Notes: a model not told the origin generated them from the sequence alone. Counted from the stretch's first letter, positions 1,235 through 44,819 are shown. The stretch: 64,000 nt of DNA from a virus (IMGVR_UViG_3300022562_001204:78551-142550), one strand, 5' to 3'. Numbers and translations are program-made.

Positions 1235-2533
1235 TTACTCGGCGCTGGAGCCTTGAATATTGGCGATCGACATGCCGATGTACTTCGTGGCATTTGCGAA
1301 GCCAGCGTAAGTTTCGGCCGGAAGCCTCATGTAGAAGTTGTTCATGATTCGCACACTCTGAGAGAGTATGAACTTCATGGTGTTCATTTGGGACCTGGAC
1401 AACTTCTTCAAGTCCTTCGAAGTACGATTGAAGTTCTGAAGGATGGTCTTAAGGTCACCCTTATCGGCCTTGACAGAGGCGTTAGCCTTACGAATCTCGG
1501 AGATGGCCGAGAGAAGTTCCTTGGCCAACGGAGCGATTTCGTTGGGTTTCAGAGCCGTCGCCGTCACCACCTGCTTCCGTGAATTACTGGGTCTGATCCA
1601 GGTAACGATAAACGGAATACCGTAAATCGAAGCGGGAATGGCGGATTTCGACAGAACGATACCACCGATCAGAGGACCCCGAGCCTCGTGGGTGGTTGAC
1701 TGAACCGAAGCGGTAGCTTTCGGAATGCCGTTGAAAAGCTTTTCTTCAACAGAGGTAAAGGTTTTGGCGGCTTTGGTCGCGTCGTCTTTCTCCATCGAGC
1801 TCTTCTGAAAGCCTTCGATTGCCGAAACAAGAGACTCTTTGGACGCGCTGACGAGTTTCACGGAGGAGACCGTGCGTTCGATCAGTTCGCTCAACGTTTT
1901 GGCGTTGGCCTGGGTTCCGTCACCGATCGCCCGGGCGATGGCCTTCGATTTGAACTCCGTGGCCTTCATCTCGCCTTTCAGCGACTTGGCCTGGGCTGAG
2001 TACTGCGTCAGCTTCTGCTCGAGATCGACATACTTGGAGTCGAGAGAAGCGAACAACTTGACGAAGGCGTCGCCAATCGCCGCCAGTTTCTTGAAGACAT
2101 TGCCGAGGATCGATTCGGAGGTCTTCTCGACACCGTCTTCCAAGGCCAGCTTGGTGGCGGCCAAACGCGACCGGGGGGACTGGAACGATTCCATACTCGG
2201 CAGGGACTTCCGGAGTTTGGTCGGCATGCCAAGACGATCACGGATCGACTCAATGGCCGTCTCAACCATTTCGGCAGCCTGGGGATCCAGACCTTCACCA
2301 GAATCGATTGCCGGCTGAATGGCCTCTTCGAGGTTTTCCAGAGTGGCCAGTGCTTCGAGACCGACCTCCACACCGGCCATGTTGTCGCTGGCGACAACGG
2401 CATAGCCGTCCATCTCGGCCATGGCGTCATCCAGTTCCGAGTGGGACGACAGGACGTCATCCTGGGCTGCGTCACCTGGGTTGAGTTCTTCCAGATCTGC
2501 GTCTTCGAGTGAAAAGAAAGTATTCTTCGACAT
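1235..2533 (-). CDS. acidic coiled-coil protein, paralog 1 of 3 (family with 2671..4044 and 4058..5257)
   Basis: The ORF track runs to 2635. The probable start is the ATG at 2533 (MSKNTFF), preceded by a GAGG SD. It shares the motif block E(T)AIESIRDRLG with the two plus-strand paralogs. TAA stop. Confidence 0.55.
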   Translation of the reverse strand: MSKNTFFSLEDADLEELNPGDAAQDDVLSSHSELDDAMAEMDGYAVVASDNMAGVEVGLEALATLENLEEAIQPAIDSGEGLDPQAAEMVETAIESIRDRLGMPTKLRKSLPSMESFQSPRSRLAATKLALEDGVEKTSESILGNVFKKLAAIGDAFVKLFASLDSKYVDLEQKLTQYSAQAKSLKGEMKATEFKSKAIARAIGDGTQANAKTLSELIERTVSSVKLVSASKESLVSAIEGFQKSSMEKDDATKAAKTFTSVEEKLFNGIPKATASVQSTTHEARGPLIGGIVLSKSAIPASIYGIPFIVTWIRPSNSRKQVVTATALKPNEIAPLAKELLSAISEIRKANASVKADKGDLKTILQNFNRTSKDLKKLSRSQMNTMKFILSQSVRIMNNFYMRLPAETYAGFANATKYIGMSIANIQGSSAE

Positions 2534-2670
2534 AGCGGCCTCTATGAGGATTGGAGATGAGAAATTCGATGGCGCAGAGCTGCACTCAAAAGATAGTAAG
2601 GTATACTGGTTTAGATATTCTCTGGTAACCAACAACCTGTGTCCACCCTTCCTATAAGGAACTAAAACGT

Positions 2671-4044
2671 ATGAAGCCCTATTTTTCGATGGAAGAGATC
2701 AGTGAAGACCTGGATGTCCTGGACGGTGTGGATCAGGGTAGCTTGGAAAACAACATCCCGATCGATGATGCAGTGCAGGCCGTCGAGTCCATCGAGGAAG
2801 GACTCGGAGTCAACGACGAACTGCTCAAGACCCTGGATGTGATTCAAGGGGCTCCTGAGATCACCGTGGAAACCGCCAGGCTGGTGGACCTCCAACTTCA
2901 GTCCATCCGGAACCGCCTGGGTGCCACTGCTCGCCGTATCCCGGGCGTATCGGTCGAATCCTACAGCAGCAAGAAGGACCTGAAAGTCGCCACCGAAGCC
3001 GGTATTCTCAACACCCTTCAGACAGTTGTTGAGCGCATCATCGAGTGGATCAAGGAATTTATCGCCAAAATTGGTGACTTCTTCTTTGGTTTCGAGAAGC
3101 GCCTCAAGGATGCCCGTGCTCGAATTGACAAACTCAAGATGTCGTTGAACTCTGTCGGTCACAATGCCCCTGTCGACACCGAGAAGTTCACCCCGGCCGA
3201 CCTTGTCAAGAAGACCTTTTATTACCGTACCGCTGTGGACGGTGGATCTATCTTGAATGACCTGAACGCTGGCGGTGCGTACATGGCGAGGGCTCACGAA
3301 GCCCTTGGGTATGTTCGTGAGGTCAAAACACACGCCGCCGCTTTCAAAGACCAAGATAGTGCGGGTCTTATGAAGATCCAAATGGGGGTCAGAAAGCTCA
3401 TCAAGCTTCTCATTGAAGACGAGTCCCTCGTAGCAAGGACGGGTATCAACATTGGGCTTAACCGAACCGATATGCAGATATACGGCCCGGTGGTCTCGAC
3501 ACACTTCTTCATTGTTTCTCAGACGACTGTCAGATTTCTATCGAGTAAAACCGATGTTCTTGACAGTGATAAAAATATCCCGACGGTGCTAGATTTTCGG
3601 CTATTCAACACCGGGGTGCAGAAGCAAGCATATGAGCAAGCGACCGTCAAACCTCTGATCCCATCGAATCTTTCGACATATGCCGATCACCTTGATGATG
3701 TTGTCAAGTCTTATGAACGGCAAACACAGTCCGTCAAAGATCTTCGAAAAGAACTTTCTGATATTCAGTTGACCCTGTCAAAGGAACTTCGTAATGGGTC
3801 CACGCAGAGTGACGACGAAATTAGCATCGATCAGCGTAAGTTCCTTATCAAAGATATTCAGATCTTGCTTAAGGGCCTGATCGGTGGTATTCGGGTCTTG
3901 GTTGTGGACACCCCGATAGCCCTCCTGAAAGCACTCCATGCTGCCATTCTCTATGGTGAAGCAAATGCTATTGCAGTCGGCGCAAAGGTTCACTTCGCCC
4001 CAGAAGGCGGCGGTACCCATGCACTGACGTACAACCCAGCCTAA
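2671..4044 (+). CDS. acidic coiled-coil protein, paralog 2 of 3
   Basis: 457 aa with AAGGAA before the ATG and a TAA stop. Carries the conserved ETARLVDLQLQSIRNRLG block shared with 1235..2533 and 4058..5257. Confidence 0.6.
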   Translation: MKPYFSMEEISEDLDVLDGVDQGSLENNIPIDDAVQAVESIEEGLGVNDELLKTLDVIQGAPEITVETARLVDLQLQSIRNRLGATARRIPGVSVESYSSKKDLKVATEAGILNTLQTVVERIIEWIKEFIAKIGDFFFGFEKRLKDARARIDKLKMSLNSVGHNAPVDTEKFTPADLVKKTFYYRTAVDGGSILNDLNAGGAYMARAHEALGYVREVKTHAAAFKDQDSAGLMKIQMGVRKLIKLLIEDESLVARTGINIGLNRTDMQIYGPVVSTHFFIVSQTTVRFLSSKTDVLDSDKNIPTVLDFRLFNTGVQKQAYEQATVKPLIPSNLSTYADHLDDVVKSYERQTQSVKDLRKELSDIQLTLSKELRNGSTQSDDEISIDQRKFLIKDIQILLKGLIGGIRVLVVDTPIALLKALHAAILYGEANAIAVGAKVHFAPEGGGTHALTYNPA

Positions 4045-4057
4045 CTCAGGAATCTCC

Positions 4058-5257
4058 ATGCTGAAAATCACGGTCGAGGGGGAGGAAATCCCCCTCCCGT
4101 CGATTGACCTCGAGGCTTACAGTGAGGTCCTGCTTCGTGCCGCTCAGCATGAGGAGGACTACGGTAACCTGGTCAATGACGGACTTGACGCCTACGCCAA
4201 CCTCGCGAATGCCCGTGAACACCTCACGGGCTTCAAACAAGCCCCGATCCCCCTGGCGACTCGTGGGCTGATCAACGTCATCATGGAGTCCACCCGACTC
4301 CAACTCGACGGAGAACCCGGCACATTCAGGGGTATCTCCCTCGAGTCTGATGAGGACGTCCTCCCACAGGTCGCCATCGAGGCCTTCACGGACACGATCA
4401 AGAAGATCATCGAGCGACTGATCAAGCTGATCAAGAAGATCTACCAGTCCTACGAGCGTATCCATCATGCCCTAGGCCGGGAGTACGCCCATAACCAGGA
4501 CAAGGTCAGGGATCTCCAGCATTACCTGGAAACTGCGGATGTCCTGGAACGTCCGGAATCCGGTACCGTGGAAGCTGTGGCTGTCAAGTCGTACTTTGGT
4601 TCTACGGACAAAGTGAATGCTCAGCATGTCCTGAAGGTCCTCAGGACCTCCCAGACCCTGGTCACCAACCTCTCCATCGGTTCGGATGCTTTCAGCGGTA
4701 TCATTGACAGCATGAAAACCGGGAAGGGTGAGGACTTCTCTGGGATCCGCACGAACTTGGAGAAAACCATGAGTGTCATGCTCAAGGGTCTCCCCAAGTA
4801 CAGTGAGGATGGCTACGGTCCGTTTGTGAGCTGCCGTGAACTCAAGGTCATCGAGAAGAACATCCCGCCCATGGGCCGGATTGAGACCCTGGAGTTCGTG
4901 CCGATCCTTGTCAAGGATCGGACAACGGTCGCCAGCATGAGCCGGGCAGAGGTCTATACGTTCCTGTCGTCCCTGTCGTCAGCCATGACAGATGCGGAGA
5001 AGTACTCCCTGGAGATGGGCAAGGCCAGGAGTCAGTTGAAGACCATCGAGGCTTTCCTTACGGAGACCAACCGTACGTTGCATCGAAACCAAGATGACAC
5101 GAAGGCCGACTACCTGAAAGCTTGTGCCGAGATCACTCGGCTCTTGGTTCGAGTAATGGACCGTAGCATGAATGATCTCCCAGTCACCCTGGAACGAGGG
5201 TACAAGACGGCGATCGCCTATGCCGTGGTCTGTGTCAAGGAACTGAAAAAGAAGTAA
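4058..5257 (+). CDS. acidic coiled-coil protein, paralog 3 of 3
   Basis: 399 aa with a TAA stop. Shares the MESTRLQLDG block and the overall N-terminal acidic layout. Confidence 0.6.
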   Translation: MLKITVEGEEIPLPSIDLEAYSEVLLRAAQHEEDYGNLVNDGLDAYANLANAREHLTGFKQAPIPLATRGLINVIMESTRLQLDGEPGTFRGISLESDEDVLPQVAIEAFTDTIKKIIERLIKLIKKIYQSYERIHHALGREYAHNQDKVRDLQHYLETADVLERPESGTVEAVAVKSYFGSTDKVNAQHVLKVLRTSQTLVTNLSIGSDAFSGIIDSMKTGKGEDFSGIRTNLEKTMSVMLKGLPKYSEDGYGPFVSCRELKVIEKNIPPMGRIETLEFVPILVKDRTTVASMSRAEVYTFLSSLSSAMTDAEKYSLEMGKARSQLKTIEAFLTETNRTLHRNQDDTKADYLKACAEITRLLVRVMDRSMNDLPVTLERGYKTAIAYAVVCVKELKKK

Positions 5258-5262
5258 AGACC

Positions 5263-5297
5263 CCTCCCCTACCCCGGATAGTCCGGGGTAGGGGAGG
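5263..5297. terminator. bidirectional stem-loop between convergent genes
   Basis: cctcccctaccccgga-tag-tccggggtaggggagg: a 16-bp perfect stem between the stop at 5257 (+) and the stop at 5305 (-). Confidence 0.5.
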
Positions 5298-9216: not shown

Positions 9217-9223
9217 CTCCCAC

Positions 9224-9237
9224 TCCTTTATATATGC
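9224..9237 (-). promoter_or_regulatory. CATATATAAAGGAG gene-start motif before 8662..9216
   Basis: Exact ctcctttatatatg on the plus strand, 3' of the hairpin at 9239..9262. Confidence 0.4.
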
Positions 9238-9238
9238 C

Positions 9239-9262
9239 AGAGCCTGGGAGATCCCAGGCTCT
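9239..9262. terminator. stem-loop agagcctggg-agat-cccaggctct
   Basis: Perfect 10-bp inverted repeat sitting between the stop at 9273 and the A/T box plus SD at 9224..9237. Confidence 0.4.
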
Positions 9263-9272
9263 GTATGCCGAC

Positions 9273-9930: not shown

Positions 9931-11721
9931 TTATTTGAACGTGAGTCCATTGGAGAGCATGGATTGGATAGCTCTCCGAATGGCGGGTGTGCCGAGGAAG
10001 TACATGAGACGGTCAAAAACCGCGTCCTTGATCCGGAGATCTTGGACGAAGATGGACCGAAGGGTTTCTGGGCTGTCGTAGGTGGATGAGGAGATACGCA
10101 GCACCGCCATGGCCAGGGGGTGGGTATGGAACCGCTGGCCGATTTTGTGATACAGATCCGAGCTGACGCCTGGGGCGTTCAGTCCGGTGAGGAATGCCGT
10201 CAGAGTGACTTCCTTTGAACGCTTGTTAAACTCGAAGAACGCACGAGCCCGGTGCTCGTTGAAACCGGCACGGACCAGCTTCTCTGGGGTCAGGGTGTAG
10301 ATATCCGCGATCGAGGTGATGCTTTTCTGCTCCACCAAGGTCCGGATGGTCGACCGACTCAGGTTCTTGAAGTCCAGTCCCTTCTTACTGACCAGGTTCC
10401 AGACCTTCTTGACCAACTGTTCTGGGCAGGTTTCCGATACACAGGCGATTCGAGTCGGTGTGATCGCCAGAGGGCTTTTGCAGAACGGGCAGACGACCGG
10501 TAGGGTGAACTCTAACTCCCCCTGTTCATCGACGTCTTTGCGTTCTTCCTTGAGGACCCCTGAGATGACTGGGAAGGCATCGCCCTGCAAGCTGACCATC
10601 ACGACGTCGTTCTTCCGCATCTCTTTGAGATTGGAGATAGACGGCATGGAAACCGAAGAGACCGTGACACCCTTGAGTTCGACAGGGTCGACCATGGCTT
10701 TGGCGGACAGTTCACCCTGAGCACTGATGCTCCACTCGACATCTCGGATGACCGTGCGTTTCTTCATGGCCTTGAACTTATGGGCAAACGCCCAGTTCGG
10801 CCCCTTGCTGGTATAACCCAGAATCTCCCGGTGAGCAACATCATTCACCTTGTACACCACCCCGTCCATGTCAAATGGGCAGGTTTCCCGCATGTCGCTG
10901 AGGGTGTTCTGGAACTCGATGAGACCCGTGATGGACACACTCATTCGGCGCTGTTCGGCAATGTTGAATCCGAGATCTTCCAGGAGTGTCCAGGTGGCTG
11001 AATGCAAGTCGCACAGGAAGTTACCCTGCCAGTCACGGGCTTCGTAGGCCATGAACCGAAGGGTCCGCTTGGAGAATTCCTCGGGATCCTTGAGGCCCAT
11101 GGTTCCGCCAGTGGCGTGACGTGGGGTTGCGAACGGCGGCTGACAGATCCGGCGCTGCCTGGCATTCAGTTCAAAGAAGTCATTCCGGGTCATGCACAGC
11201 TCCCCGTCGATCGCCACCTCTTTGTGGTTGCAGTTCTTCAGGACCTTCGGAATATCGTTGATCAGGAGTGCCTGGAGCGTGCGGTCTTGACCGACCATGC
11301 CGTCTCCACGAGTCGCCCCTGTGACCAGGATACCGTCCCGATAGTACAGACGGAACGCAATGCCATCGAACTTCGGCTCAGCTACCCAGGTCGGGAAGAC
11401 TTCCAGTTTCTTCACGATCCGACGTTGGTTCACATAAACGAACTCGTTCTCATAGGTGTTTTCCAGGCTGAGCATGTTGAAGGGATGGGTGAACTGCTGC
11501 TCACTGGGTGCATTGCCGCCGACCACCTGGGTCGGGGAATGAGGATTGACCCAATCTGGGTGCAGTTCCTCGATCTCCTTCAATCGACTGAACTTCTGGT
11601 CGTAGACCTCATCGGTAACCCGAGAAGTGTTTCTCTCGTAGTAGAAGTAGTTCAGCCGACGGATCTCTGCCAGCAAGGTCAGATATTCACTCTTGGTGGC
11701 ACGGGTGATGACTGCGCTCAT
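9931..11721 (-). CDS. ligA: NAD+-dependent DNA ligase (LigA family)
   Basis: 596 aa with the N-terminal Ia-domain pattern YYERNTSRVTDEVYDQKFSRLKEIEELHP, the adenylation motif EPKFDGIA (KxDG), a C4 zinc finger (CPFCKSPL...CVSETC) and a C-terminal helix-hairpin-helix region. TAA stop. Confidence 0.85.
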   Translation of the reverse strand: MSAVITRATKSEYLTLLAEIRRLNYFYYERNTSRVTDEVYDQKFSRLKEIEELHPDWVNPHSPTQVVGGNAPSEQQFTHPFNMLSLENTYENEFVYVNQRRIVKKLEVFPTWVAEPKFDGIAFRLYYRDGILVTGATRGDGMVGQDRTLQALLINDIPKVLKNCNHKEVAIDGELCMTRNDFFELNARQRRICQPPFATPRHATGGTMGLKDPEEFSKRTLRFMAYEARDWQGNFLCDLHSATWTLLEDLGFNIAEQRRMSVSITGLIEFQNTLSDMRETCPFDMDGVVYKVNDVAHREILGYTSKGPNWAFAHKFKAMKKRTVIRDVEWSISAQGELSAKAMVDPVELKGVTVSSVSMPSISNLKEMRKNDVVMVSLQGDAFPVISGVLKEERKDVDEQGELEFTLPVVCPFCKSPLAITPTRIACVSETCPEQLVKKVWNLVSKKGLDFKNLSRSTIRTLVEQKSITSIADIYTLTPEKLVRAGFNEHRARAFFEFNKRSKEVTLTAFLTGLNAPGVSSDLYHKIGQRFHTHPLAMAVLRISSSTYDSPETLRSIFVQDLRIKDAVFDRLMYFLGTPAIRRAIQSMLSNGLTFK

Positions 11722-12519: not shown

Positions 12520-12705
12520 TCAGTCCTTCTTATCCCGATCGCTCTGTACGGCCATCTGCCAGAGCCAAAAGGGCCAACTCACCACAACAATCACGATCCC
12601 CAACAACCGACCACTGACGTGACTGGGGTCGTTTCTGGATCGGATCAGGTCCAGAATAGCCACCAGCACCCCCACCAGGCCATAAGCCAGTATCCACCCG
12701 TCCAT
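12520..12705 (-). CDS. small two-helix membrane protein (61 aa)
   Basis: MDGWILAYGLVGVLVAILDL...IVIVVVSWPFWLWQ shows two TM segments. GGAG lies 6 nt before the ATG. It is in frame with the upstream gene, separated only by TAG-CAC. Confidence 0.45.
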   Translation of the reverse strand: MDGWILAYGLVGVLVAILDLIRSRNDPSHVSGRLLGIVIVVVSWPFWLWQMAVQSDRDKKD

Positions 12706-12708: not shown

Positions 12709-13044
12709 CTACTCCGTGCTGTCCAAAAGCCGTTGGGTATCCTTCTTGATCTTCTCGATGAGAAGGTAGCTCATATCCAGAGCAGCCCTACGTGTTTCAT
12801 AATCCTTCCGAAGAAGGTCCAGTCGCTCTCGATCTCGTTCAGCCTGCTTCAGGTAGATCAGGTCCCTGAAGCGCAGATGGTTCCGCTTAGCCGTTTCGAT
12901 ACGCAGTTCGAAAATGCTTTCTGCTTCTATGAACTCTTCGAATTCACTGAAGCGTTTGCTACTATACTGTCCGAGCAGTCCAGACAGCTTCACCAGCAGT
13001 GACATCAATGTCGGGCGATCCATGGTATCGGTCTCATCCCACAT
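12709..13044 (-). CDS. coiled-coil protein (111 aa) terminated by TAG
   Basis: Charged heptad-like sequence preceded by TATATTAGTAAGGAGGTGAACG ATG. The stop is TAG at 12709..12711. Confidence 0.5.
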   Translation of the reverse strand: MWDETDTMDRPTLMSLLVKLSGLLGQYSSKRFSEFEEFIEAESIFELRIETAKRNHLRFRDLIYLKQAERDRERLDLLRKDYETRRAALDMSYLLIEKIKKDTQRLLDSTE

Positions 13045-13140
13045 CGTTCACCTCCTTACTAATATAAAGGAGTTGCTGGCTATCTTTTCCTACCACACCG
13101 AGGTTTGTGTCCATACATCACTCGCCGAGACGGCATAAAG

Positions 13141-13172
13141 CCCTCCTACCTGGCCGAAACCAGGTAGGAGGG
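13141..13172. terminator. stem-loop directly 3' of the tRNA
   Basis: ccctcctacctgg-ccgaaa-ccaggtaggaggg: a 13-bp perfect stem 5 nt after the tRNA CCA end. Confidence 0.5.
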
Positions 13173-13177
13173 CAATG

Positions 13178-13252
13178 TGGTGGCGCTAGAGGGACTCGAA
13201 CCCTCGTCTACGTGTTTAGAGCACGTCGCTCTTACCGCTGAGCTATAACGCC
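13178..13252 (-). tRNA. tRNA with anticodon CUA (amber/UAG suppressor), isotype undetermined
   Basis: Folded by hand from the reverse complement GGCGTTATAGCTCAGCGGTAAGAGCGACGTGCTCTAAACACGTAGACGAGGGTTCGAGTCCCTCTAGCGCCACCA. A 7-bp acceptor stem, a GCTC/GAGC D-stem, an ACGTG/CACGT anticodon stem with loop CU-CUA-AA (U33 and A37 present), a T-stem GAGGG/CCCTC with loop TTCGAGT, discriminator A and an encoded CCA are all present. Confidence 0.75.
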
Positions 13253-13266
13253 TAACGGGTATCCTC

Positions 13267-13728
13267 TCAAGCCATTACCTCGATGGCCTGGATGACGTTC
13301 TTCTGGTTTTTCATCTTCCAGCTCTGCTTAGCCTGTTCCACCGCGGGCCCTAACCGAGCAGCCACGTGCGAACCATACTGCTTCTCAACCACTTGCAGTA
13401 CTTTATGCCACTGGGGTTCGGTGTAGCTACGAGGTTCCAGCGCCTCGTAAGGCACTCCTCGCATCAGGCCGTACGCCAGGTGCATCGCCCTGGCCTCCTC
13501 CTTCAGTCTCGTCCTCTCCCAGACAAAATAGAAGTGGTCACTTCGGGAGTAGAAGCCGGTGAGCTTCTCGTGATACGCGAGTCTCCTGGCCTGTACGTCT
13601 TCGATCTGATGGACCTCCCGGTACAGCCTGGAGTACCATTGTTCGATCTTCCTGACTTCATCCCGGTGGATACGGGTCGCGGCGGCATTGGCTTTAATCA
13701 GCGCTTTCAGATAGCGTGTCTTAGACAT
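13267..13728 (-). CDS. hypothetical protein (153 aa)
   Basis: ORF with GAGAGGAAACTACG before the ATG and a TGA stop. Confidence 0.5.
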   Translation of the reverse strand: MSKTRYLKALIKANAAATRIHRDEVRKIEQWYSRLYREVHQIEDVQARRLAYHEKLTGFYSRSDHFYFVWERTRLKEEARAMHLAYGLMRGVPYEALEPRSYTEPQWHKVLQVVEKQYGSHVAARLGPAVEQAKQSWKMKNQKNVIQAIEVMA

Positions 13729-13916: not shown

Positions 13917-14306
13917 CTACGGGACTAGGTTGGTCCCGATACTCGTCCACTTCATCCGGATGTCCTCTATGTCATCCGGGGGTAAGAACCAGCATTCCTT
14001 GAGCAGCTTATCAAGGATGGGGTTTTGCTGGGAGGCAAAGAACCCCATCAGCAACTTCTGGCTCTCTTTCGAGAAGACCCCCTCTTTCAAGCAGGCCTTC
14101 ATGAAATCGTGGGAGGGTAACTGACGTCCTGTCTCGACATGGCTGATCCGGCACTTGCTGTACCCAAGGAGGGGAGCCAGACTGGGCATCGTGTGCCCGG
14201 CATCATGCCGGACCTGTCGTAGCGCTTCCCCAAAGGTCTTCGGATTATCGGGCCGTTTCGTCCCGTGCCGATAGGTAGTCTTCTTGGGGCGTTTCTTTCG
14301 AGGCAT
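13917..14306 (-). CDS. helix-turn-helix DNA-binding protein (Cro/C1-like)
   Basis: A basic N-terminus (MPRKKRPKKTT) is followed by FGEALRQVRHDAGHTMPSLAPLLGYSKCRISHVETG, consistent with an HTH_XRE fold. The stop is TAG. Confidence 0.5.
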   Translation of the reverse strand: MPRKKRPKKTTYRHGTKRPDNPKTFGEALRQVRHDAGHTMPSLAPLLGYSKCRISHVETGRQLPSHDFMKACLKEGVFSKESQKLLMGFFASQQNPILDKLLKECWFLPPDDIEDIRMKWTSIGTNLVP

Positions 14307-14382
14307 ATCTTTTCCCTATCAGAGATGGAACCTCAGTTCCTCATGTAGAATATGTATAACCGAAAAAATCTTGAAGAGACGA

Positions 14383-14408
14383 GGAGAGACCCCCTAGGGG
14401 GTCTCTCC
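14383..14408. terminator. stem-loop ggagagaccccc-tag-ggggtctctcc
   Basis: Perfect 11-bp stem. Confidence 0.4.
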
Positions 14409-14416
14409 TTAGCTGA

Positions 14417-15137: not shown

Positions 15138-15168
15138 GAGAGGAGAGGCCCCCAGGGGGCCTCTCCTC
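15138..15168. terminator. stem-loop gaggagaggcccc-cag-ggggcctctcctc
   Basis: 13-bp perfect stem. The T10 run lies on the plus-strand 5' side, so it is not a canonical intrinsic terminator for minus-strand transcripts. Confidence 0.35.
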
Positions 15169-17866: not shown

Positions 17867-17880
17867 CTCCTTTATATATG
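17867..17880 (-). promoter_or_regulatory. CATATATAAAGGAG gene-start motif before 17389..17865
   Basis: Exact ctcctttatatatg, 3' of the hairpin at 17891..17916. Confidence 0.4.
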
Positions 17881-17890
17881 TCAGTATAGC

Positions 17891-17916
17891 AGAGTAGGGT
17901 GGATCCACCCTACTCT
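17891..17916. terminator. stem-loop agagtagggtgg-at-ccaccctactct
   Basis: 12-bp perfect stem located between the stop at 17929 and the A/T box plus SD at 17867..17880. Confidence 0.4.
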
Positions 17917-17928
17917 GTAGAGACCCGC

Positions 17929-20685: not shown

Positions 20686-21678
20686 TTAGAAATCGTTGCT
20701 GAAGGTCGTCCCTTGGATCGATACGAGCCTCGGGGTGGCGGGTGGTGGAGGACATCCTTCTACACCGAACAGCACGTTATGTGGCAGAAGGCACCGTTCT
20801 GTCATCCACATCCCGCTCTCTTCGGTGGTTCTCGGGATCATTACTAACCTGGTTGCATTCCAGGGTTCTAGAGGACAATCTCTCGAAATGCGGAGAACGT
20901 CCCAATTCAGGTGTCTTCCGATAACCTGTACGGCTACCGAGTTCGGAAGAATCGTGAGGTTGTTGGGGAGTTTGATAACGCCCCTCTCATCTGGGGGCAT
21001 CGACCAGAGGGACTCCGGGGCCGTGATGGCATGGTCGCAATGGTGGTCGAACAACCTGGGGAGACTGATTCTGGTACGGACTCCTTCTGGTGACAGGACG
21101 TTCAGACGAGTGTCACCAGCATTCGGCGGGTGAAAGAACAGACCAACCCCTCGTTGAACCATCCCCGCCCGAAACTTGGCCCATTGAGCGCAACAGGTCT
21201 CTTTAATGCCCTGGAGAATAGTTTTCCAGGGTTCTTCAACACTGGTCGTTTGAGACCACGGCTCCCACTGTTCACGATCTGGCTGGATGACACTGGGTAG
21301 GTAATGCAGATCCTTCTCCAGGCATTCTGTATACACCTTACCATTTTGTTCGTACATCCTCAAAATGCGTAGACGGTTGACAGGGTAGCCGGGGTTAACG
21401 AAGACTGCATTTTGTAGAAGATAAAGACTGACCTCCATGTTCTCATTCACCGCATAGCTGAGCATGTGCGGAACCTGGACGGGATAGCCCACCGTATCGA
21501 CGACAGACAGTTCAAGCTGATCGTTGATCCCGACGTTTGGAATAAGTTTGTAGTCACGGGGATTATCGCCGGGCATCTCAAGGAGCTCTCTGAGTAGCTC
21601 ATTGGTTATTCCGTACAGTCCGACAACTACCGGATTTTGAGGAACCAGACCAGGCTCCATGTACATTCCTGCTTCCAC
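20686..21678 (-). CDS. family-A paralog (conserved C-terminal SPEGVRTR...LIPRT domain)
   Basis: 330 aa. The C-terminus reads LSPEGVRTRISLPRLFDHHCDHA...RLVMIPRT. TAA stop. Confidence 0.5.
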   Translation of the reverse strand: MEAGMYMEPGLVPQNPVVVGLYGITNELLRELLEMPGDNPRDYKLIPNVGINDQLELSVVDTVGYPVQVPHMLSYAVNENMEVSLYLLQNAVFVNPGYPVNRLRILRMYEQNGKVYTECLEKDLHYLPSVIQPDREQWEPWSQTTSVEEPWKTILQGIKETCCAQWAKFRAGMVQRGVGLFFHPPNAGDTRLNVLSPEGVRTRISLPRLFDHHCDHAITAPESLWSMPPDERGVIKLPNNLTILPNSVAVQVIGRHLNWDVLRISRDCPLEPWNATRLVMIPRTTEESGMWMTERCLLPHNVLFGVEGCPPPPATPRLVSIQGTTFSNDF

Positions 21679-21691
21679 GGGGGCTTCCTTA

Positions 21692-22234
21692 TTAAAGAGG
21701 TGCTGGGGGTGGTTCTAATGGCGTTAGAGCATTCTGAGCCATACTCTGTTTCCAGGCTCGGTATGCACTTTCAGCGATTGGAGAGACGGCGTTCCAGACC
21801 TTCCTGTCGGTTTCTGATCTGATTGCAGAAGGTGGAAACCAGTTCTGCTCAGTCAGTTTGACGACATATGGCTTCATACTTACGCTGGGGTACGAAACAT
21901 ATGACCTCAAACACCCTGGGCCCTCCATTTGCAATGCCAGAAGGCTAATTGACAGGAAGGGAGTGCCATATGGACTGTAAGGCACACTTGTCAAGGCGTA
22001 TACGACGATACTGCCATCGGCATAGACTGTGTACCATACGCCATATGGCACAGTTACTGAGTAGATGGACGCATCAAAGATGCAGAGTAAAGGTTCGCCA
22101 CTCATCTCGTTGATCAGAACCCCGGCATACTTCCCGAGATACGCACCGTACTGTTCCTTGAAGATCTGGTGCAGTTCACCGGTGAGCTCGAAGAAGCCAG
22201 AGACCACTGGAGGTCCGGATTGGTCACTTCTCAT
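21692..22234 (-). CDS. hypothetical protein (180 aa)
   Basis: ATG at 22234 after CATATTTAAAGGAG. TAA stop. Confidence 0.5.
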   Translation of the reverse strand: MRSDQSGPPVVSGFFELTGELHQIFKEQYGAYLGKYAGVLINEMSGEPLLCIFDASIYSVTVPYGVWYTVYADGSIVVYALTSVPYSPYGTPFLSISLLALQMEGPGCLRSYVSYPSVSMKPYVVKLTEQNWFPPSAIRSETDRKVWNAVSPIAESAYRAWKQSMAQNALTPLEPPPAPL

Positions 22235-22239
22235 AACTA

Positions 22240-22253
22240 CTCCTTTAAATATG
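22240..22253 (-). promoter_or_regulatory. CATATTTAAAGGAG gene-start motif before 21692..22234
   Basis: Plus strand reads ctcctttaaatatg, 3' of the hairpin at 22258..22279. Confidence 0.35.
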
Positions 22254-22285
22254 TAAGGGGTAGTCCCTATGGGACTACCTTGTGG

Positions 22286-23398
22286 TCAGGCCAGCTTCTT
22301 GATCCAGGGCGGGCACTCTTGTTCCGTTACCTTGATGGCGGTCGACGGGTCGAACAGGCATTCATGCAGCAAGATGCTCCCGCCGTGCTGGGCGATCGTT
22401 TCCGATGCTGCCTGGACGGTCCTGGGGATCAGCACTACCCTCAGCCCCAGAGGGGGCTGGGCCAGGATATGACAGATATCCCAGTCAAAGTAGCGTCCTG
22501 TCGAATAGACCGCCACTCCGTTGACCAATGGGGAGGTATCCACCTCAGTGGGTAATGCCCGCCAATCCGAGGAGGACCCATAGGAACTGCGTCGTTCGTC
22601 CTCGGTGATCGGCCAGAGCGACAGCGGGGACATGAAGGCATGGTTCGCATCCCCTCGGAACAACCCAGGAAGGTGGACACGAGTACGGACACCTTCGGGG
22701 GATACGAAGTCCAAGAACTCATGATACTGCATGGCGGGCCTGATGTTCAGAGGGAGCTGTCGAAGGTCGACCGTTTCGTCTTCTGGTTCGGATTTCATTG
22801 TATCGAGATGTTCGGACTTGCTATGCTCTAGACAAATATGTTTCAAGTAGTCGAGCGAGACGCGAGGAATAGTATTACGGTAGAAGCGCCGAAGCCCGGC
22901 ACTGACCTCATAGTTACGCCATCCATGCGCCTCCGTGGGTACCAGGCCTAGCGGGTCGCAGGTTTGCACATCCCTGATTTTAGCGTAGAACCCGGAGCCA
23001 TCAGTCGTTATGTCGTCGATAACCGCGGTCATACGGAGCCATTTAAACTGATACTCGACCCCGGCGAGATGAGACGTTCCCTTTATCAAAACGTAGATGC
23101 TGAACCGATGTTTCGAATCAACCGTGAAATTGACGTCATAGGTGTTACTTTCGACCCTTTTATCGGCGACCATCATGAGTTCCTGGCCATTTCGAATAGC
23201 TAACTTTCCCACATAGTCCGAGGGTTCCTCATGACACTCCTCGAGTATACGGTCATACTCAGACTTAGTGAGTTTGATCGACCCGATGTATGGTAGGGGT
23301 TCTTTGCAAAGCTCGATGACCTCGGGCTCAGCCCTATCACGGACGTCCTTCTGATACTCTTCATACAGCTTCTTAGAGGTGATGAAACTGTTTTCCAC
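22286..23398 (-). CDS. family-A paralog
   Basis: 370 aa with a GTG start after the TATATAAAGGAG box. The C-terminus reads VSPEGVRTRVHLPGLF...CHILAQPPLGLRVVLIPRT. TGA stop. Confidence 0.5.
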   Translation of the reverse strand: MENSFITSKKLYEEYQKDVRDRAEPEVIELCKEPLPYIGSIKLTKSEYDRILEECHEEPSDYVGKLAIRNGQELMMVADKRVESNTYDVNFTVDSKHRFSIYVLIKGTSHLAGVEYQFKWLRMTAVIDDITTDGSGFYAKIRDVQTCDPLGLVPTEAHGWRNYEVSAGLRRFYRNTIPRVSLDYLKHICLEHSKSEHLDTMKSEPEDETVDLRQLPLNIRPAMQYHEFLDFVSPEGVRTRVHLPGLFRGDANHAFMSPLSLWPITEDERRSSYGSSSDWRALPTEVDTSPLVNGVAVYSTGRYFDWDICHILAQPPLGLRVVLIPRTVQAASETIAQHGGSILLHECLFDPSTAIKVTEQECPPWIKKLA

Positions 23399-23404
23399 GA
23401 GCGA

Positions 23405-23417
23405 CTCCTTTATATAG
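23405..23417 (-). promoter_or_regulatory. CTATATAAAGGAG gene-start motif before 22286..23398
   Basis: Plus strand reads ctcctttatatag, 3' of the hairpin at 23427..23459. Confidence 0.35.
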
Positions 23418-23480
23418 CGCTGCTGACTCCCCTCGGACCTATACCGGGTCCGAGGGGAGTATTGGCTGACTTACTGAATG

Positions 23481-24569
23481 TTACAAGGGGGCGCGAGGTG
23501 TTGAACGGAGTTCGTCCGGCAGTTTCGAAGAGAACGCGCCTGCCCCGGGTATGCCGATGATGAATTGTGTTAAGATCCAGTCCGGAATGTCGCGGATGTC
23601 CATGTTCGGATACTCCTGAGATCTCCCAGGTTTGTTATGCTGAAGCAGGACCGACCTGGATCCAAGCAAACCTGTGACTGCTTGGGTAGTCCTTGGGATG
23701 AGGATGACCCGAAGACCTAACGGAGCCGGTGCGTGGATATGGCAGACTTCGTAGTCGTCGTAGGTCGCCACTCGGTAGAACCGGATACCGCCCCACTCAG
23801 ACAGATCCTCGATATCCGAAAGACGCCGCCATTCTTCGGTCAGACCTGCGTCTTCCTCAGCAGAATGGTGGTAGGCGTTGTTCCGGTAGTCATTGAACAC
23901 AGCCGGCAGGTCGATGCGGCTCCAGGTACCTTCAGGGGAGATGACATCCAGGCTTCCTGTCTCGAATCCTTTCGGTTTAAACCGAAAGGTCCCTCTCAGA
24001 GAGCTCGGACTGTGTGGACGGTTCATATCGGCCACTTCCTTGGCTATGACGGGGTTGAGGTCTTCCACGAGCGTGGCGGCGTCTTTCGGATAAAAGTGAA
24101 AGGGCCTGGATCTTCCAAGATCCTCGATGACGAGAGGTCCTGAGGAACCTTTTTCCACCAACCGAACCTGGGTTGACTCAAGGCCACGATGGATGACGAG
24201 CCAGTACGTCTTCGTCAAGTCGAGTGGTGTATCCATAAGTTTCAGAAAGGCTGCTGTATAAAAGGTCCATTCTCCTGGGGACCTGGTCAGCACCACCCCC
24301 TGACAGACATCTTGAATCGCCATTACGACAGACGAATCAAGAGTAGCATGTTTGAAATCGGGGCGTACGATATTGGTAAGGAGTACCGTCTCGTTCTCCA
24401 GAATACCGATTTTGAACGGACAGGGAATGGGACGGATACCAAAATAGACGTAGAAGTTATGAAGAATAGTTTCAATATGGCGTTTGGGAAGGTGGACGGT
24501 GATCAGACTCCCCTTCTCTTTGTCCGGATTGACCACCGTCTTGACAACGCGGATCTCATTACTATTCAT
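23481..24569 (-). CDS. family-A paralog
   Basis: 362 aa. The C-terminus reads ISPEGTWSRIDLPAVF...CHIHAPAPLGLRVILIPRT. TAA stop. Confidence 0.5.
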   Translation of the reverse strand: MNSNEIRVVKTVVNPDKEKGSLITVHLPKRHIETILHNFYVYFGIRPIPCPFKIGILENETVLLTNIVRPDFKHATLDSSVVMAIQDVCQGVVLTRSPGEWTFYTAAFLKLMDTPLDLTKTYWLVIHRGLESTQVRLVEKGSSGPLVIEDLGRSRPFHFYPKDAATLVEDLNPVIAKEVADMNRPHSPSSLRGTFRFKPKGFETGSLDVISPEGTWSRIDLPAVFNDYRNNAYHHSAEEDAGLTEEWRRLSDIEDLSEWGGIRFYRVATYDDYEVCHIHAPAPLGLRVILIPRTTQAVTGLLGSRSVLLQHNKPGRSQEYPNMDIRDIPDWILTQFIIGIPGAGAFSSKLPDELRSTPRAPL

Positions 24570-34126: not shown

Positions 34127-34232
34127 GGTATTATTAAAGGAGTAGGGTCATACCATCTCCTCCTGGATTCGACGAAAAATATAGCAGTCTGATATACCCT
34201 CCTCTGGCCAGGCCAGAGGAGGGTATATACCG

Positions 34233-34917: not shown

Positions 34918-34931
34918 CTCCTTTATATATG
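34918..34931 (-). promoter_or_regulatory. CATATATAAAGGAG gene-start motif before 34233..34910
   Basis: Exact ctcctttatatatg. Confidence 0.4.
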
Positions 34932-36254: not shown

Positions 36255-36268
36255 CTCCTTTATATATG
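36255..36268 (-). promoter_or_regulatory. CATATATAAAGGAG gene-start motif before 35594..36247
   Basis: Exact ctcctttatatatg, 3' of the hairpin at 36274..36307. Confidence 0.4.
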
Positions 36269-36311: not shown

Positions 36312-36788
36312 TCAGTAGAAACTTTGAGGGTTCTTGAAGCTCTGGTAGTTCAGCAACATCGCAGCGGCAGCATAGACCACCAGGATCCATCCAGACCCGG
36401 CTAATGTCAGGACTCCTGCCAGGACAACCAGGGTATTTCGCATGTACCGTGTCGGGGAATTGTACAGACAGATCACGGAGACTGCCGTCACCATGGCTAC
36501 CACGCGGGCGGTAATGTCCATCGCCACGGCCAGGGGTCCCCAGATGTCTTCACCCACCGTTTGGACCAGAAGCCAGGGAACCATAGCCAGGATCACGGTT
36601 GTCGTGATGAACATCCCGGCGCTGCTGTACAGGGTGGACACCCCGTAGCATCGCTCGTCCAGATAGGCTGACATGGCAGATTTCTGGGAGAAGACGTACT
36701 GGCGCCCGTAGGCCCAGGTCATCAGGACTCCCGACAGGAACAACACCAGCGAGAAACCATTCAACAGAAGCTCAAGAAGCGTGAACAT
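36312..36788 (-). CDS. small polytopic membrane protein 1 of 8 (158 aa)
   Basis: About four hydrophobic helices. TACTATAAGGGAGTATCGCC before the ATG. TGA stop. Confidence 0.5.
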   Translation of the reverse strand: MFTLLELLLNGFSLVLFLSGVLMTWAYGRQYVFSQKSAMSAYLDERCYGVSTLYSSAGMFITTTVILAMVPWLLVQTVGEDIWGPLAVAMDITARVVAMVTAVSVICLYNSPTRYMRNTLVVLAGVLTLAGSGWILVVYAAAAMLLNYQSFKNPQSFY

Positions 36789-36813
36789 GGCGATACTCCC
36801 TTATAGTAATCGC

Positions 36814-37302
36814 TTATGATTCTTTCCACGTGGCGGATTGCCAGCGGAACAGTTGGAGCCGTCCGAGGATGAGGACGGCGATGCTAATGAAGATCAAAGC
36901 GGCGTTAAACGCCAGTAACAAAACCGAACATAACACAACAGCGATTCGACCTTGGCGGGAGAGGTCGAAGTTCAAGCCGACCACAATCCCCGCAATGAGA
37001 GTGGGGATGAGTCGACTCCCCAGAAGCACAGCCTCGACCACGGGGTCGTAGGCCCGCCCACCCAGCAGCTTCCCTGTTGCGTAACACAGTGCGGTCAGAA
37101 ACACCATAGCCCCACACAGCTTGGAGTGGTCCTCCACGATTCGACCAGTCCCCAAAGTCACGTGACCTTCCTTGGTCCGATAAGGGTCTCTCGACACTAC
37201 GTAGGTCATGGTCAGTCCATAGAGCCAGTGAAGCTCAATATAGAGCACCATAGACGCCAGGACTGTGTAGACCACGTAGCTGTTCGAGAAACACTCGTTC
37301 AT
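36814..37302 (-). CDS. small polytopic membrane protein 2 of 8 (162 aa)
   Basis: About four hydrophobic helices. GGAGGGG SD. TAA stop. Confidence 0.5.
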   Translation of the reverse strand: MNECFSNSYVVYTVLASMVLYIELHWLYGLTMTYVVSRDPYRTKEGHVTLGTGRIVEDHSKLCGAMVFLTALCYATGKLLGGRAYDPVVEAVLLGSRLIPTLIAGIVVGLNFDLSRQGRIAVVLCSVLLLAFNAALIFISIAVLILGRLQLFRWQSATWKES

Positions 37303-37303
37303 G

Positions 37304-37780
37304 TCACCCCTCCGTTGTTTGCTTTACCTTACGCCCAATGAGCCCCAAGAACACCACAGCAATGATGGCATTGAGCCAGCTGTATCCCAGTAACCCTATC
37401 GCACAGAACGTTACCAGAATTACCATTCGATTCGGGACTGCCAGGGTGACGTACCAAACCCAGACAATGATGGTCGCGATGCAAGCGATCAGAAGTATGG
37501 TGCTGTACTCGGCAGCCAGTAGAAACCCAGGACTTCCCACGGTAGGATGACCGTAATCAATGACGAGGTAGATCGCGAAATACCCCACGATACAGGCAAG
37601 TAACTGAGGGGCTTTCTTGTATATGTTCTCCCAGCACGCCTGCCTTTGTTTCTCTGGGAATACGACGAGGCTAAACATGTTGTCGAGTCCCGCTTTCAGA
37701 GTGGCTTTCGCTGTAACCAGTGCCGATATGACAAGCAGCAAGCAGAAGAAGTTGACGCTATAATCAAGAACGATGTTCAT
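37304..37780 (-). CDS. small polytopic membrane protein 3 of 8 (~158 aa)
   Basis: The track start lies inside the upstream gene. The ATG at 37780 (MNIVLDYS) follows GGGGAG. TGA stop. Confidence 0.5.
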   Translation of the reverse strand: MNIVLDYSVNFFCLLLVISALVTAKATLKAGLDNMFSLVVFPEKQRQACWENIYKKAPQLLACIVGYFAIYLVIDYGHPTVGSPGFLLAAEYSTILLIACIATIIVWVWYVTLAVPNRMVILVTFCAIGLLGYSWLNAIIAVVFLGLIGRKVKQTTEG

Positions 37781-38243
37781 TTTGCTCCCCAGATCTAAGT
37801 TTTGCGTCGTCTTCACACGACCACGCGAGCACACAGAACCCGACCCCTACCACCAGTACGGTCAGATTCAAGTTAAACATTATCAACGCCCCGACCAGGA
37901 AGACGAACCGAATGAAACGGAACGTCATGAGGTACATGGAGAGAATCGACGCTACCGTGACCCCTGAGAGTAGGTATGCCGACAGTACGGCCACCCTACG
38001 GACGCCCTCGCTCCCGTACCCGGTACCCAGAAGGTTGAGCATCCCAACAGCCGCCAGTGGTAAGAGCATGGATGCGAGAAGCGACCAGCGGGCGTCACTG
38101 ACCAGGGAGTATCCAGGGATACGGAGGTTGAACCGCCCCAACCAGGGTTCTTCTGGAACCAGGTAGTACCGGGTCGCTAGGTATGTAAAGCTCAATGAGC
38201 TCATGAGCAGCATCAAGTACAGCAGGTTAGCGATACTGTCCAT
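37764..38243 (-). CDS. small polytopic membrane protein 4 of 8 (159 aa)
   Basis: The ATG directly abuts the TAG of the upstream gene, in the same frame. AAAAAAAGGAACCGATAG precedes it. TGA stop. Confidence 0.5.
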   Translation of the reverse strand: MDSIANLLYLMLLMSSLSFTYLATRYYLVPEEPWLGRFNLRIPGYSLVSDARWSLLASMLLPLAAVGMLNLLGTGYGSEGVRRVAVLSAYLLSGVTVASILSMYLMTFRFIRFVFLVGALIMFNLNLTVLVVGVGFCVLAWSCEDDAKLRSGEQNEHRS

Positions 38244-38660
38244 CTATCGGTTCCTTTTTTGTGTTGCGAGGTTGTTTTCGATAAACAGGATGGGTAAAAC
38301 GACGGAGAGAGCGATCCCTACGGGGTTACCCAACCACCCAAGAATCACACCAGCCGGCATGAGGAGTATTTTGGTCGAGGTTTTAACCTCGAATTCAGAA
38401 CCCACGACAGCGATACTGACCAAGAATCCCTGAACACACGTCACGATGCCAACGAAGTGAAGGAAAGGCGTGTGTCCTGCCAGGTCGGTGACCAGTGCGA
38501 TGGCCAGTAGTGGAAGACCACCCACTAAGAGACAAACGACCTGATGTTTGTTACGCCGAACCTCAAAGTTGAAGAAGATCCCGTTGAGGACCACCCAGAA
38601 CGTTCCAAGCAGACTCACTGCTTGGAACGTCAGAAGTACCATGCTTTCTTGCTGGGTCAC
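38244..38660 (-). CDS. small polytopic membrane protein 5 of 8 (138 aa), TAG stop
   Basis: The stop is TAG at 38244..38246, immediately followed in frame by the next ATG. Confidence 0.5.
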   Translation of the reverse strand: MTQQESMVLLTFQAVSLLGTFWVVLNGIFFNFEVRRNKHQVVCLLVGGLPLLAIALVTDLAGHTPFLHFVGIVTCVQGFLVSIAVVGSEFEVKTSTKILLMPAGVILGWLGNPVGIALSVVLPILFIENNLATQKRNR

Positions 38661-39091
38661 GAGATCTTTGACCTGGTCTTGAAGTTCTCCATACTGACGG
38701 CTATCAGCATCGCTGATGCGATGAGCGCCAGTGTCACGGGATTCGAACCCGCTGCGAAGTGGGTGTAGTAGGACAGGGGCAGGCTAGCGATAACCAGCCC
38801 CGCACCGACGATCCGAAGACCCCGACTGTAGACACATCTGACGGTAAGTAGGGCCAACATGGTCGCGAACGAAAGGGAAATGCTGAACGCACCCAGCATC
38901 AGCGACAAGTTGGCAGCTGGGTCCTTGACCTGAAGGTAAATCAGCCAGTAGGCAGGATACAGGCCAACAACGACCAGCGCGGACAGCACGATGTTGGGTT
39001 TTGAGATCTGGGGACTGATGATCGCCATGGAGACCACGCTGACAAGAGCCAGCATGGCGACACCCAGTGCGAGGTGATGAAGATCATTCAT
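38657..39091 (-). CDS. small polytopic membrane protein 6 of 8 (~144 aa)
   Basis: The track ORF has a long Arg/Pro-rich N-terminal extension that is not believable. The ATG at 39091 (MNDLHHLALGV) follows CCAAGGAGTACCAGC. TGA stop. Confidence 0.5.
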   Translation of the reverse strand: MNDLHHLALGVAMLALVSVVSMAIISPQISKPNIVLSALVVVGLYPAYWLIYLQVKDPAANLSLMLGAFSISLSFATMLALLTVRCVYSRGLRIVGAGLVIASLPLSYYTHFAAGSNPVTLALIASAMLIAVSMENFKTRSKIS

Positions 39092-39512
39092 GCTGGTACT
39101 CCTTGGATTTGGTCCAACCGAAAAACACAACAATACAGACACAGACAAGGACGGGGACTGGGATGCCCTTGATGGCAAACACCAGGGAGACCCCCAGCCC
39201 AATGACTCGATACACAACAGCCAGCCGCTCTCGCGTGGCGAATACGGCAACCGCCATGGCGCCGCTGGTCCAGATACCGACCTGGGTCGTGGCCGACGCC
39301 AGCGAGGCGACCCCTGTACCGAGGTCATACATCCCACCCAGAGCCATCAAGGGACTCAGTACGCCCCCTATGTTCAGCCGTTCGATGATTGTGAACCTGG
39401 GTTTCTGGCTGGCGGGTCTCAAAATGTAAAAGACGGTCAGATAGATCAAGCTCGCAGTCATCACCACCAGCAGCACAGCATCTATCACGAAGAAGAGGGC
39501 GGTATCGTCCAT
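39084..39512 (-). CDS. small polytopic membrane protein 7 of 8 (~142 aa)
   Basis: The ATG at 39512 (MDDTALFFVID) follows CAAAAGGAAACTCACC. TGA stop. Confidence 0.5.
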   Translation of the reverse strand: MDDTALFFVIDAVLLVVMTASLIYLTVFYILRPASQKPRFTIIERLNIGGVLSPLMALGGMYDLGTGVASLASATTQVGIWTSGAMAVAVFATRERLAVVYRVIGLGVSLVFAIKGIPVPVLVCVCIVVFFGWTKSKEYQHE

Positions 39513-40470: not shown

Positions 40471-40521
40471 GTTGGTTCCCTTTATGACAACATAGAGGAG
40501 AGGCATCCCTCTCCCGAAGAA

Positions 40522-43505: not shown

Positions 43506-43506
43506 A

Positions 43507-44818: not shown

Positions 44819-44819
44819 A

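Follow-up and report, generated by a model that had tools for sequence, protein, structure and literature searches.

What does an amber-suppressor tRNA do in a phage that still stops at UAG? The question was already raised, without a target, by the jumbo phages XacN1 (2018) and RsoM2USA (2021), and it is raised again by a tRNA gene at 13178..13252 of a 64-kb stretch of phage DNA (the window; positions are counted from its first letter). Phage suppressors are best studied as agents of TAG-to-Gln recoding in the late and lysis genes of low-GC gut phages (bioRxiv 10.1101/2021.08.26.457843; PMC13037316). That role does not fit here, with a window GC of 54%, unbroken structural genes and a tRNA that does not resemble tRNA-Gln. 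The explanation that we consider probable, from comparison of sequences, is an accessory amber suppressor in a standard-code, phiKZ-related jumbo phage, of the kind found in XacN1 and RsoM2USA, rather than a tRNA that serves a recoded genome. Partial recoding, a local switch, and a non-decoding or decaying gene each stand well below it. CUA tRNAs in standard-code jumbo phages have been published before; the present case is a further example, clean and well supported and without surprise, in a lineage that lacks sequenced relatives, and its only mildly unusual aspects are its apparently solitary position (the sole tRNA in at least 76 kb) and its non-Gln body.

The tRNA gene

ARAGORN finds a single tRNA in the window, on the minus strand, and places CTA at position 34. 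The Rfam tRNA model RF00005 aligns end to end (model positions 1-71 of 71) with 13181..13252, at 72.7 bits against a gathering score of 29, an E-value of 5.7e-14 and a posterior of 1.00.

13178..13252, minus strand: tRNA gene, anticodon CUA (reads UAG), 75 nt, CCA encoded (ARAGORN, Rfam, MFE fold)

In the Rfam alignment the acceptor stem has 7 bp (GGCGUUA/UAGCGCC, with one U5-G68 wobble), the D arm is GCUC/AGCGGUAA/GAGC with an 8-nt D loop containing GG, the anticodon arm is ACGUG/CUCUAAA/CACGU with a 5-bp stem, the variable loop is the 4-nt AGAC, and the T arm GAGGG/UUCGAGU/CCCUC is followed by A73 and the encoded CCA. Stems of 7/4/5/5 bp, a 7-nt anticodon loop, U33 and a purine at 37 are thus all present by Rfam, by MFE folding and by the sequence itself. 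The tertiary positions U8, A14, G18, G19, A21, U33, G53, U54, U55, C56, A58 and C61 are all kept, as are the tertiary pairs G15-C48 and G26-A44 read from the sequence. When 13130..13260 is folded without constraint, the MFE structure is the cloverleaf plus a downstream hairpin, at -60.2 kcal/mol (z = -5.3; 0/200 shuffles as good). The tRNA is far beyond chance. Its sequence is identical in three JGI contigs (L001, L137 and L138); L138 differs from the window by one SNP, which lies outside the tRNA, and the other assemblies are near-identical.

The sequence-only reading had described a 75-nt cloverleaf with these stems and a CUA anticodon and had proposed ARAGORN as a check; ARAGORN, Rfam and the MFE fold all agree with it, exactly one tRNA being called and with the anticodon as stated. 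Its label of amber suppressor stands as a structural reading, a CUA anticodon in a canonical body, whereas suppression itself (expression, charging and readthrough) we only infer. The gene encodes a genuine, canonical elongator-type tRNA, which is probably a functional amber suppressor.

The locus and its gene-end hairpins

Reading along the minus strand, the neighborhood of the tRNA is as follows.

13917..14306, minus strand: HTH_31 (Xre-type) regulator (Pfam PF13560, 38.3 bits), upstream of the ORF153-tRNA unit; ends in TAG
13267..13728, minus strand: ORF153, an all-helical ORFan ending 14 nt upstream of the tRNA
13141..13172, minus strand: GC-rich perfect hairpin of 13 bp (sequence, fold), beginning 5 nt past the CCA and then followed by CUUUAU
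12709..13044, minus strand: ORF111, an ORFan and the first gene past the hairpin, with TTTATATTAG and a strong Shine-Dalgarno (SD) sequence upstream; ends in TAG, in frame with ORF61
12520..12705, minus strand: ORF61, encoding a small two-TM protein; its ATG is one codon past the TAG of ORF111 and is served by a separate SD (ACGGAG)

The order is therefore ORF153, tRNA, terminator-like hairpin, and then a new unit that opens with TTTATATTAG, the strong SD and ORF111; we found no other RNAs at the tRNA locus. ORF153 is probably co-transcribed with the tRNA, which would be the last element of the ORF153 unit, ahead of the hairpin, and would be released from the transcript by RNase P and 3′ trimming. 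No family match to ORF153 was found in Pfam, PHROG, NCBIfam or PADLOC, and among 5.8 billion proteins it matched only itself. Its AF2 model is a helical hairpin (pLDDT 79.6) for which there was no significant structural match. A role for ORF153 as a code-change factor was considered and rejected, the protein having neither a family match nor a significant fold match. The HTH_31 gene has a second in-frame TAG 14 codons past its TAG stop, and its protein is weakly similar to HTH components of defence or antitoxin systems (PADLOC HTH_VI, capH).

The hairpin arms (13160..13172 and 13141..13153) form 13 perfect pairs, just as the sequence-only reading had it, around a 6-nt loop, and are seen in both sequence and fold. 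The structure narrowly fails the U-tract rule of our terminator scan; it probably ends the ORF153-tRNA transcript as an intrinsic terminator or stabilises its 3′ end. The same reading had called this stem-loop the tRNA's own. The hairpin is there, yet it is one of about 30 similar ones: when the 39 intergenic regions of at least 45 nt were folded, ~30/39 had a long, perfect, GC-rich hairpin directly past the upstream gene, so that nothing makes this one special to the tRNA, and we rejected it as a tRNA-specific element. These gene-end hairpins have 11-21 bp and different sequences, unlike the members of a repeat family. They resemble terminators, or punctuation for RNA stability, used across the genome. 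Examples are:

34192-34228: gene-end hairpin
1183-1216: gene-end hairpin
5263-5297: gene-end hairpin
14382-14409: gene-end hairpin
15140-15168: gene-end hairpin
17890-17917: gene-end hairpin
9238-9263: gene-end hairpin

After many of the hairpins the motif TATATAAAGGAG(T) precedes the next gene, with 16 matches at no more than 2 mismatches versus 1.7 expected. In form it resembles a Shine-Dalgarno sequence joined to an AT-rich promoter box, and the related TTTATATTAG sits ahead of ORF111, downstream of the tRNA. Exact copies are listed here; the other 11 are near matches.

9223-9234, minus strand: TATATAAAGGAG(T)
17867-17878, minus strand: TATATAAAGGAG(T)
23405-23416, minus strand: TATATAAAGGAG(T)
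34918-34929, minus strand: TATATAAAGGAG(T)
36255-36266, minus strand: TATATAAAGGAG(T)

The carrier genome

The window belongs to a 257,149-bp metagenomic contig, which is of jumbo-phage size, and covers about one fourth of the genome of a phiKZ-related jumbo phage. Exact-protein look-ups placed the same sequence on contigs of JGI sample 3300015263 and run SRR14699976. Altogether we examined ~76 kb of the ~257 kb, namely the 64-kb window with flanks of 10 kb and 1.8 kb. Nearly all window genes lie on the minus strand. Those with recognisable products include the following, and the remaining window proteins are mostly ORFans.

1235..5257: phiKZ-type internal head proteins (phiKZ_IP, family match), three genes
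9931..11721: NAD-dependent DNA ligase
elsewhere in the window: tail protein; PhiKZ_MCP-like domain; VWA/Calx-beta protein; Band_7 protein; Peptidase_M78

The three internal-head-protein genes, the tail protein and the PhiKZ_MCP-like domain bear out the earlier claim that the tRNA is phage-encoded. No release factor (including RF2), aminoacyl-tRNA synthetase or tRNA-processing enzyme was found among the window proteins in searches of Pfam, NCBIfam and other collections; no lysis cassette was identified in the window, and no further tRNA in the window and its 11.8 kb of flanks.

Relatives were sought at several levels. A 5 kb megablast query gave no hit among 50,697 phage genomes, and the best tblastn identities were 25-27%. 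Searching IMG/VR for the exact tRNA pattern gained no relative, nor were relatives of the ligase found in IMG/VR and JGI metagenomes; nearest to the ligase in the set of 5.8 billion proteins were only the cellular LigA of Beta- and Gammaproteobacteria, at 32-36% identity, which gives a weak hint of a host in these classes. The phage represents a lineage without sequenced relatives among the phage genomes, IMG/VR, JGI metagenomes and the 5.8 billion proteins.

Several apparent duplications were noted in passing. About nine consecutive ORFs of 140-225 aa at 36312-40506, each with several predicted TM segments and without a family match, form an apparent array of paralogous membrane proteins, within which the TAG at 38244-38246 is in frame with the next member. 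A gene pair (85 aa + 348 aa) occurs twice in tandem, at 43248-44553 and 44561-45863, with clearly similar sequences; two 784-aa proteins (52948-55302 and 56563-58917) are an apparent duplication, as are several neighbouring ORFs at 20686-24569 that have the motif 'SPEGVRTR..LP.LF' in common. The last ORF (62261-64000) exits the window and on a Logan contig (L130) its product has 1416 aa and carries Laminin_G_3 and Calx-beta domains. The gene before it encodes at least 1472 aa, and the two proteins may be giant fibre or adhesin-like structural proteins.

CUA tRNAs of other phages

The best match to the tRNA among the 50,697 phage genomes is a CUA tRNA of Synechococcus phage BUCT-ZZ01 (ON615601.1), with 81% identity over 92% of the length (E 4e-9). 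In both, the anticodon arm is flanked by GCGAC...GUAGAC, the variable loop reads AGAC and position 73 is A. In contrast, BUCT-ZZ01 is a cyanophage (Kyanoviridae, 156 kb) whose locus has 38% GC, and its CUA tRNA lies in a tRNA cluster beside a tmRNA-like gene, with a different acceptor stem and a bulged anticodon stem. Two jumbo phages of Xanthomonas gave matches as well: XacN1, with two tandem copies that are annotated tRNA-Sup, and Xoo-sp13. ARAGORN places a tmRNA-like gene ~1 kb from the CUA tRNA(s) in both BUCT-ZZ01 (L003:4117-4535) and XacN1 (L004:7148-7568), so in these two phages stop-codon readthrough adjoins a ribosome-rescue function.

The jumbo phages provide the closest parallels in biology. 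In-silico readthrough of 18 amber stops of XacN1 revealed no target (PMC5852040), and the Ralstonia jumbo phage RsoM2USA has one CUA tRNA, for which no readthrough target was identified (PMC8504454); Atu_ph07 has a UCA suppressor tRNA (PMC6102473). Like our phage, XacN1, RsoM2USA and Xoo-sp13 are jumbo phages, with a (probably) proteobacterial host, that keep TAG as a stop, and their tRNAs share the canonical class I body, the D arm UAGCUCAGCGGUNAGAGC and the loop CUCUAAA. However, CUA tRNAs of the XacN1/RsoM2USA type are only ~74% identical to ours and belong to arrays of 29-44 tRNAs, whereas ours is solitary over the 76 kb; moreover the XacN1 and Xoo-sp13 copies look Lys-derived, being closest to the Lys-UUU of their own genomes, whereas ours is closest to a phiKZ-type Thr(UGU).

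That nearest sense relative, found with the anticodon masked, is the tRNA-Thr(UGU) of the phiKZ-like phages PhiPA3 and BRkr (62/69 positions), a kinship that agrees with the presence of phiKZ-type genes in the window. It shares with our tRNA the acceptor 5′ strand except position 2, the D stem, and the T stem GAGGG/CCCUC, and differs in the anticodon stem, all three anticodon bases and the ThrRS determinant C2-G71, which is G2-C71 in ours. This also distinguishes the gene from laboratory amber suppressors: E. coli supE, supF and engineered CUA tRNAs likewise have a CUA that competes with RF1 at UAG, but they are host tRNAs with one mutation in the anticodon, whereas ours is a phage gene that differs from its nearest sense relative at all three positions. 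CUA tRNAs of many backgrounds are charged by GlnRS or LysRS via U35 (PMC1483225).

Suppressors of the code 15 phages (crAss-like, Lak) resemble ours in being phage-encoded CUA tRNAs that are presumed to be charged by the host. Unlike our phage, those phages have many in-frame TAGs, mostly in structural and lysis genes, low GC, sometimes RF2, and TAG read as Gln, and our tRNA is without the Gln hallmarks U1-A72, G73 and U38.

In IMG/VR only ten contigs carry a CUA tRNA with the same D arm and loop, three of them contigs of 148-360 kb. Six of the ten tRNAs are the sole tRNA in loci of ~12-15 kb, and none of the ten loci gave a TAG-specific gain in coding density. A jumbo viral contig of 360 kb, IMGVR_UViG_3300024331_000007, encodes tRNA-Lys(UUU), a CUA (amber) tRNA and a UUA (ochre) tRNA within 500 nt (L132:183-661).

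These comparisons bear on whether the gene is a working suppressor at all. It might instead be a relic or a recent anticodon mutant, poorly charged or unexpressed, or it might serve some end other than decoding, for example by diverting host anticodon nucleases or by marking the ORF153 mRNA for processing. The 76 kb holds no target gene that we could find, and a body nearest to tRNA-Thr(UGU) yet without the ThrRS determinants fits no synthetase set well. Even so we regard these options as unlikely: a decaying gene would not be expected to keep all its structural and tertiary positions and a score like that of functional tRNAs, as this one does, and similar CUA tRNAs recur in unrelated phages. 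That recurrence, with its six solitary cases, and the seemingly solitary place of the present suppressor, which is not one of dozens, argue for selection on the CUA anticodon itself.

Use of TAG in the visible genome

In the 76 kb that are visible, the genetic code is the standard one. Under code 11, 90% of the window's minus strand lies within ORFs of 100 aa or more, and treating TAG as sense adds no more coding than treating TAA or TGA so. Eight of 81 genes (9.9%) stop at TAG versus 15% expected from off-frame triplets, a difference that is not significant (p = 0.22), and readthrough would not end sooner past TAG than past TAA or TGA (median 10 versus 15 codons to the next in-frame stop, p = 0.37). 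The flanks (10 kb before the window's start and 1.8 kb past its end) have dense standard-code genes, and gene calls are dense under code 11 in all retrievable contigs. Thus the statements of the sequence-only reading that TAG is still a stop, that the long structural ORFs are intact and that the genome is not fully recoded all hold, the last of them in that TAG as sense brings no specific coding gain.

We scanned for in-frame stops with at least 40 open, coding-like codons required on both sides. Only two genuine coding-strand TAG cases were found: 12709..12711, between ORF111 and ORF61, and 38244..38246, which separates two members of the multi-TM paralogue array. At both junctions the second ORF is provided with a Shine-Dalgarno sequence and an ATG of its own. 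With spacers allowed, in-frame junctions are about equally frequent after TAA and TGA, and we rejected an enrichment of TAG junctions on that ground. The search for ORFs that are intact only with TAG translated, proposed earlier for the rest of the phage genome, was run on these 76 kb of ~257 kb and found none; nor did TAG readthrough anywhere in the 76 kb lead into recognisable sequence, the neighbouring genes being ORFans. An association with readthrough of late or lysis genes, which had been suggested, is unsupported in the 76 kb, where the two in-frame TAG junctions look like ordinary gene boundaries. Of the traits by which code 15 phages are recognised, then, the 76 kb shows the CUA tRNA, and both the many in-frame TAGs and the TAG-specific density gain are absent.

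Since no gene in the visible 76 kb depends on the tRNA, the preferred explanation is an accessory suppressor. Once charged, the tRNA would contend with RF1 for UAG codons, so that these would be read through in part; candidate benefits are partial readthrough of a few UAG-terminated phage or host genes, or tolerance of amber mutations.

Partial recoding has a slightly lower chance than a gene that does not suppress. In-frame TAGs would then lie in late, structural or lysis genes in the ~180 kb outside the window, and the suppressor would switch on late genes. There is indeed a strong correlation between suppressor tRNAs and TAG recoding in phages, and recoding falls mainly in particular modules (bioRxiv 10.1101/2021.08.26.457843; PMC13037316); ~70% of the genome is outside the inspected part, and the window is without an identified lysis cassette. 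However, the structural genes in the window (tail, internal head, and ORFs of 784 to 1083 aa), a class that is usually recoded, have no in-frame TAG, and TAG is a genuine stop at normal frequency. Furthermore, the proposed route to recoding begins from low GC whereas GC here is 54%, the window has no RF2 gene, and the retrievable contigs are dense under code 11.

A more local possibility is that the tRNA reads the TAG between ORF111 and ORF61, giving a membrane-anchored 173-aa fusion beside the separate proteins, for instance in lysis timing. Past the tRNA, the first transcription unit to follow is this TAG-linked, in-frame pair; ORF61 is small, with two hydrophobic segments and a charged C-terminus; and two of the eight genes that stop at TAG lie around the tRNA, within ~1.2 kb, although this last is a post hoc observation. 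Against it, ORF61 has the SD and ATG of a normal coupled-gene arrangement, in-frame junctions are about as common after TAA or TGA, ORF111 and ORF61 matched only themselves, so that no homologue offers a fused form or a conserved TAG in support, and there is no endolysin nearby. We consider it improbable. Equally improbable is its fuller form, a suppressor kept for its own sake as part of a two-part switch, in which the accumulating tRNA would produce the ORF111-ORF61 fusion, probably by inserting lysine, and so shift the timing of a membrane event such as lysis. If such a switch did operate, stand-alone CUA tRNAs, including the six other solitary ones in IMG/VR, would be regulators of programmed readthrough.

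The inserted amino acid

Under the preferred explanation, that of an accessory suppressor, a host aminoacyl-tRNA synthetase would charge the tRNA, no phage synthetase being visible in the window. The sequence-only reading held that the isotype could not be assigned from G1-C72, A73 and a 4-nt variable loop; these features are present, and isotype profiles likewise give no winner. The short variable loop excludes the bacterial Tyr, Leu and Ser bodies, and A73 with G1-C72 disfavours Gln and Trp types. What remains reads as a generic class I scaffold with A73. BLAST neighbours are ambiguous (Sup, Thr, Gly, Met, Asn), no E. coli tRNA matches, and in an IMG/VR census of tRNAs with the same D arm and loop frame the anticodons CAU and GUU dominate.

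Isotype HMMs were built with the anticodon masked from 301 bystander viral tRNAs, and in leave-one-out trials ranked the correct isotype first in 60% and among the top three in 73%. With this 60% top-1 classifier the best scores, none a winner, were Val 33.3, Gly 30.7, Ile 29.5, Thr 29.4 and Lys 28.4 bits, and the Gln profile scored 17.8 bits versus 28-33 for the best isotypes. For the isotypes whose anticodons are one mutation from CUA, Lys gave 28.4 bits, Glu, Trp and Gln 18-20, and Leu, Ser and Tyr 9-13. Nine of 14 other phage CUA tRNAs score best as Lys with the same HMMs.

The identity rules of E. coli offer another approach. Its LysRS identity set is U34, U35, U36 and A73, and its GlnRS set U1-A72, G2-C71, G3-C70, G10, Y34, U35, G36, A37, U38 and G73; the two enzymes compete for CUA tRNAs via U35, C34 is tolerated by LysRS in transcripts, and G31-C39 moderately reduces lysine acceptance (PMC1483225). 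By these rules, which may not be those of the host, our tRNA has U35 and A73 of the Lys set, an A36 that is forced by CUA, and G31-C39; of the Gln set it has 5/10 (G2-C71, G10, C34, U35, A37), by the same rules and with the same qualification, and lacks U1-A72, G3-C70, G36, U38 and G73. LysRS and GlnRS are favoured because both key on U35. As the charging enzyme we infer LysRS as most likely and GlnRS second, with E. coli rules standing in for those of the host. On the same E. coli footing, lysine would be the leading candidate for the inserted residue, at a little under an even chance, glutamine a clear second, and all other residues together next. Lysine insertion, if true, would be new for phages, in which recoding has so far been TAG to Gln.

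Pyrrolysine can be dismissed. A tRNA-Pyl has a 3-nt variable loop, a 6-bp anticodon stem, a short D loop without G18 and G19, and one base separating acceptor and D stems. Our tRNA has a canonical body, with G18 and G19, a 5-bp anticodon stem, a 4-nt variable loop, the U8 A9 spacer and a TPsiC loop, and no pylS- or pylBCD-like protein was found among the window proteins with Pfam and NCBIfam; the structure refutes the true tRNA-Pyl that ARAGORN's printed label would imply, and we give it next to no weight. ARAGORN gives 'tRNA-Pyl' to any CTA anticodon, and since it reflects the anticodon only, the label is nominal.

GenBank annotations of the related tRNAs differ in places from the calls made here. 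The CUA tRNAs of BUCT-ZZ01 (L003:2995-3070; ON615601.1) and Xoo-sp13 (L007:2501-2576; MN047793.1) are unannotated. The PhiPA3 tRNA at HQ630627.1 294861-294937 (L006:2499-2575) is annotated 'tRNA-Cys, codon recognized UGU', whereas ARAGORN reads UGU as its anticodon, making it a tRNA-Thr; the BRkr equivalent is annotated Thr, and the PhiPA3 anticodon was seemingly taken as the codon.
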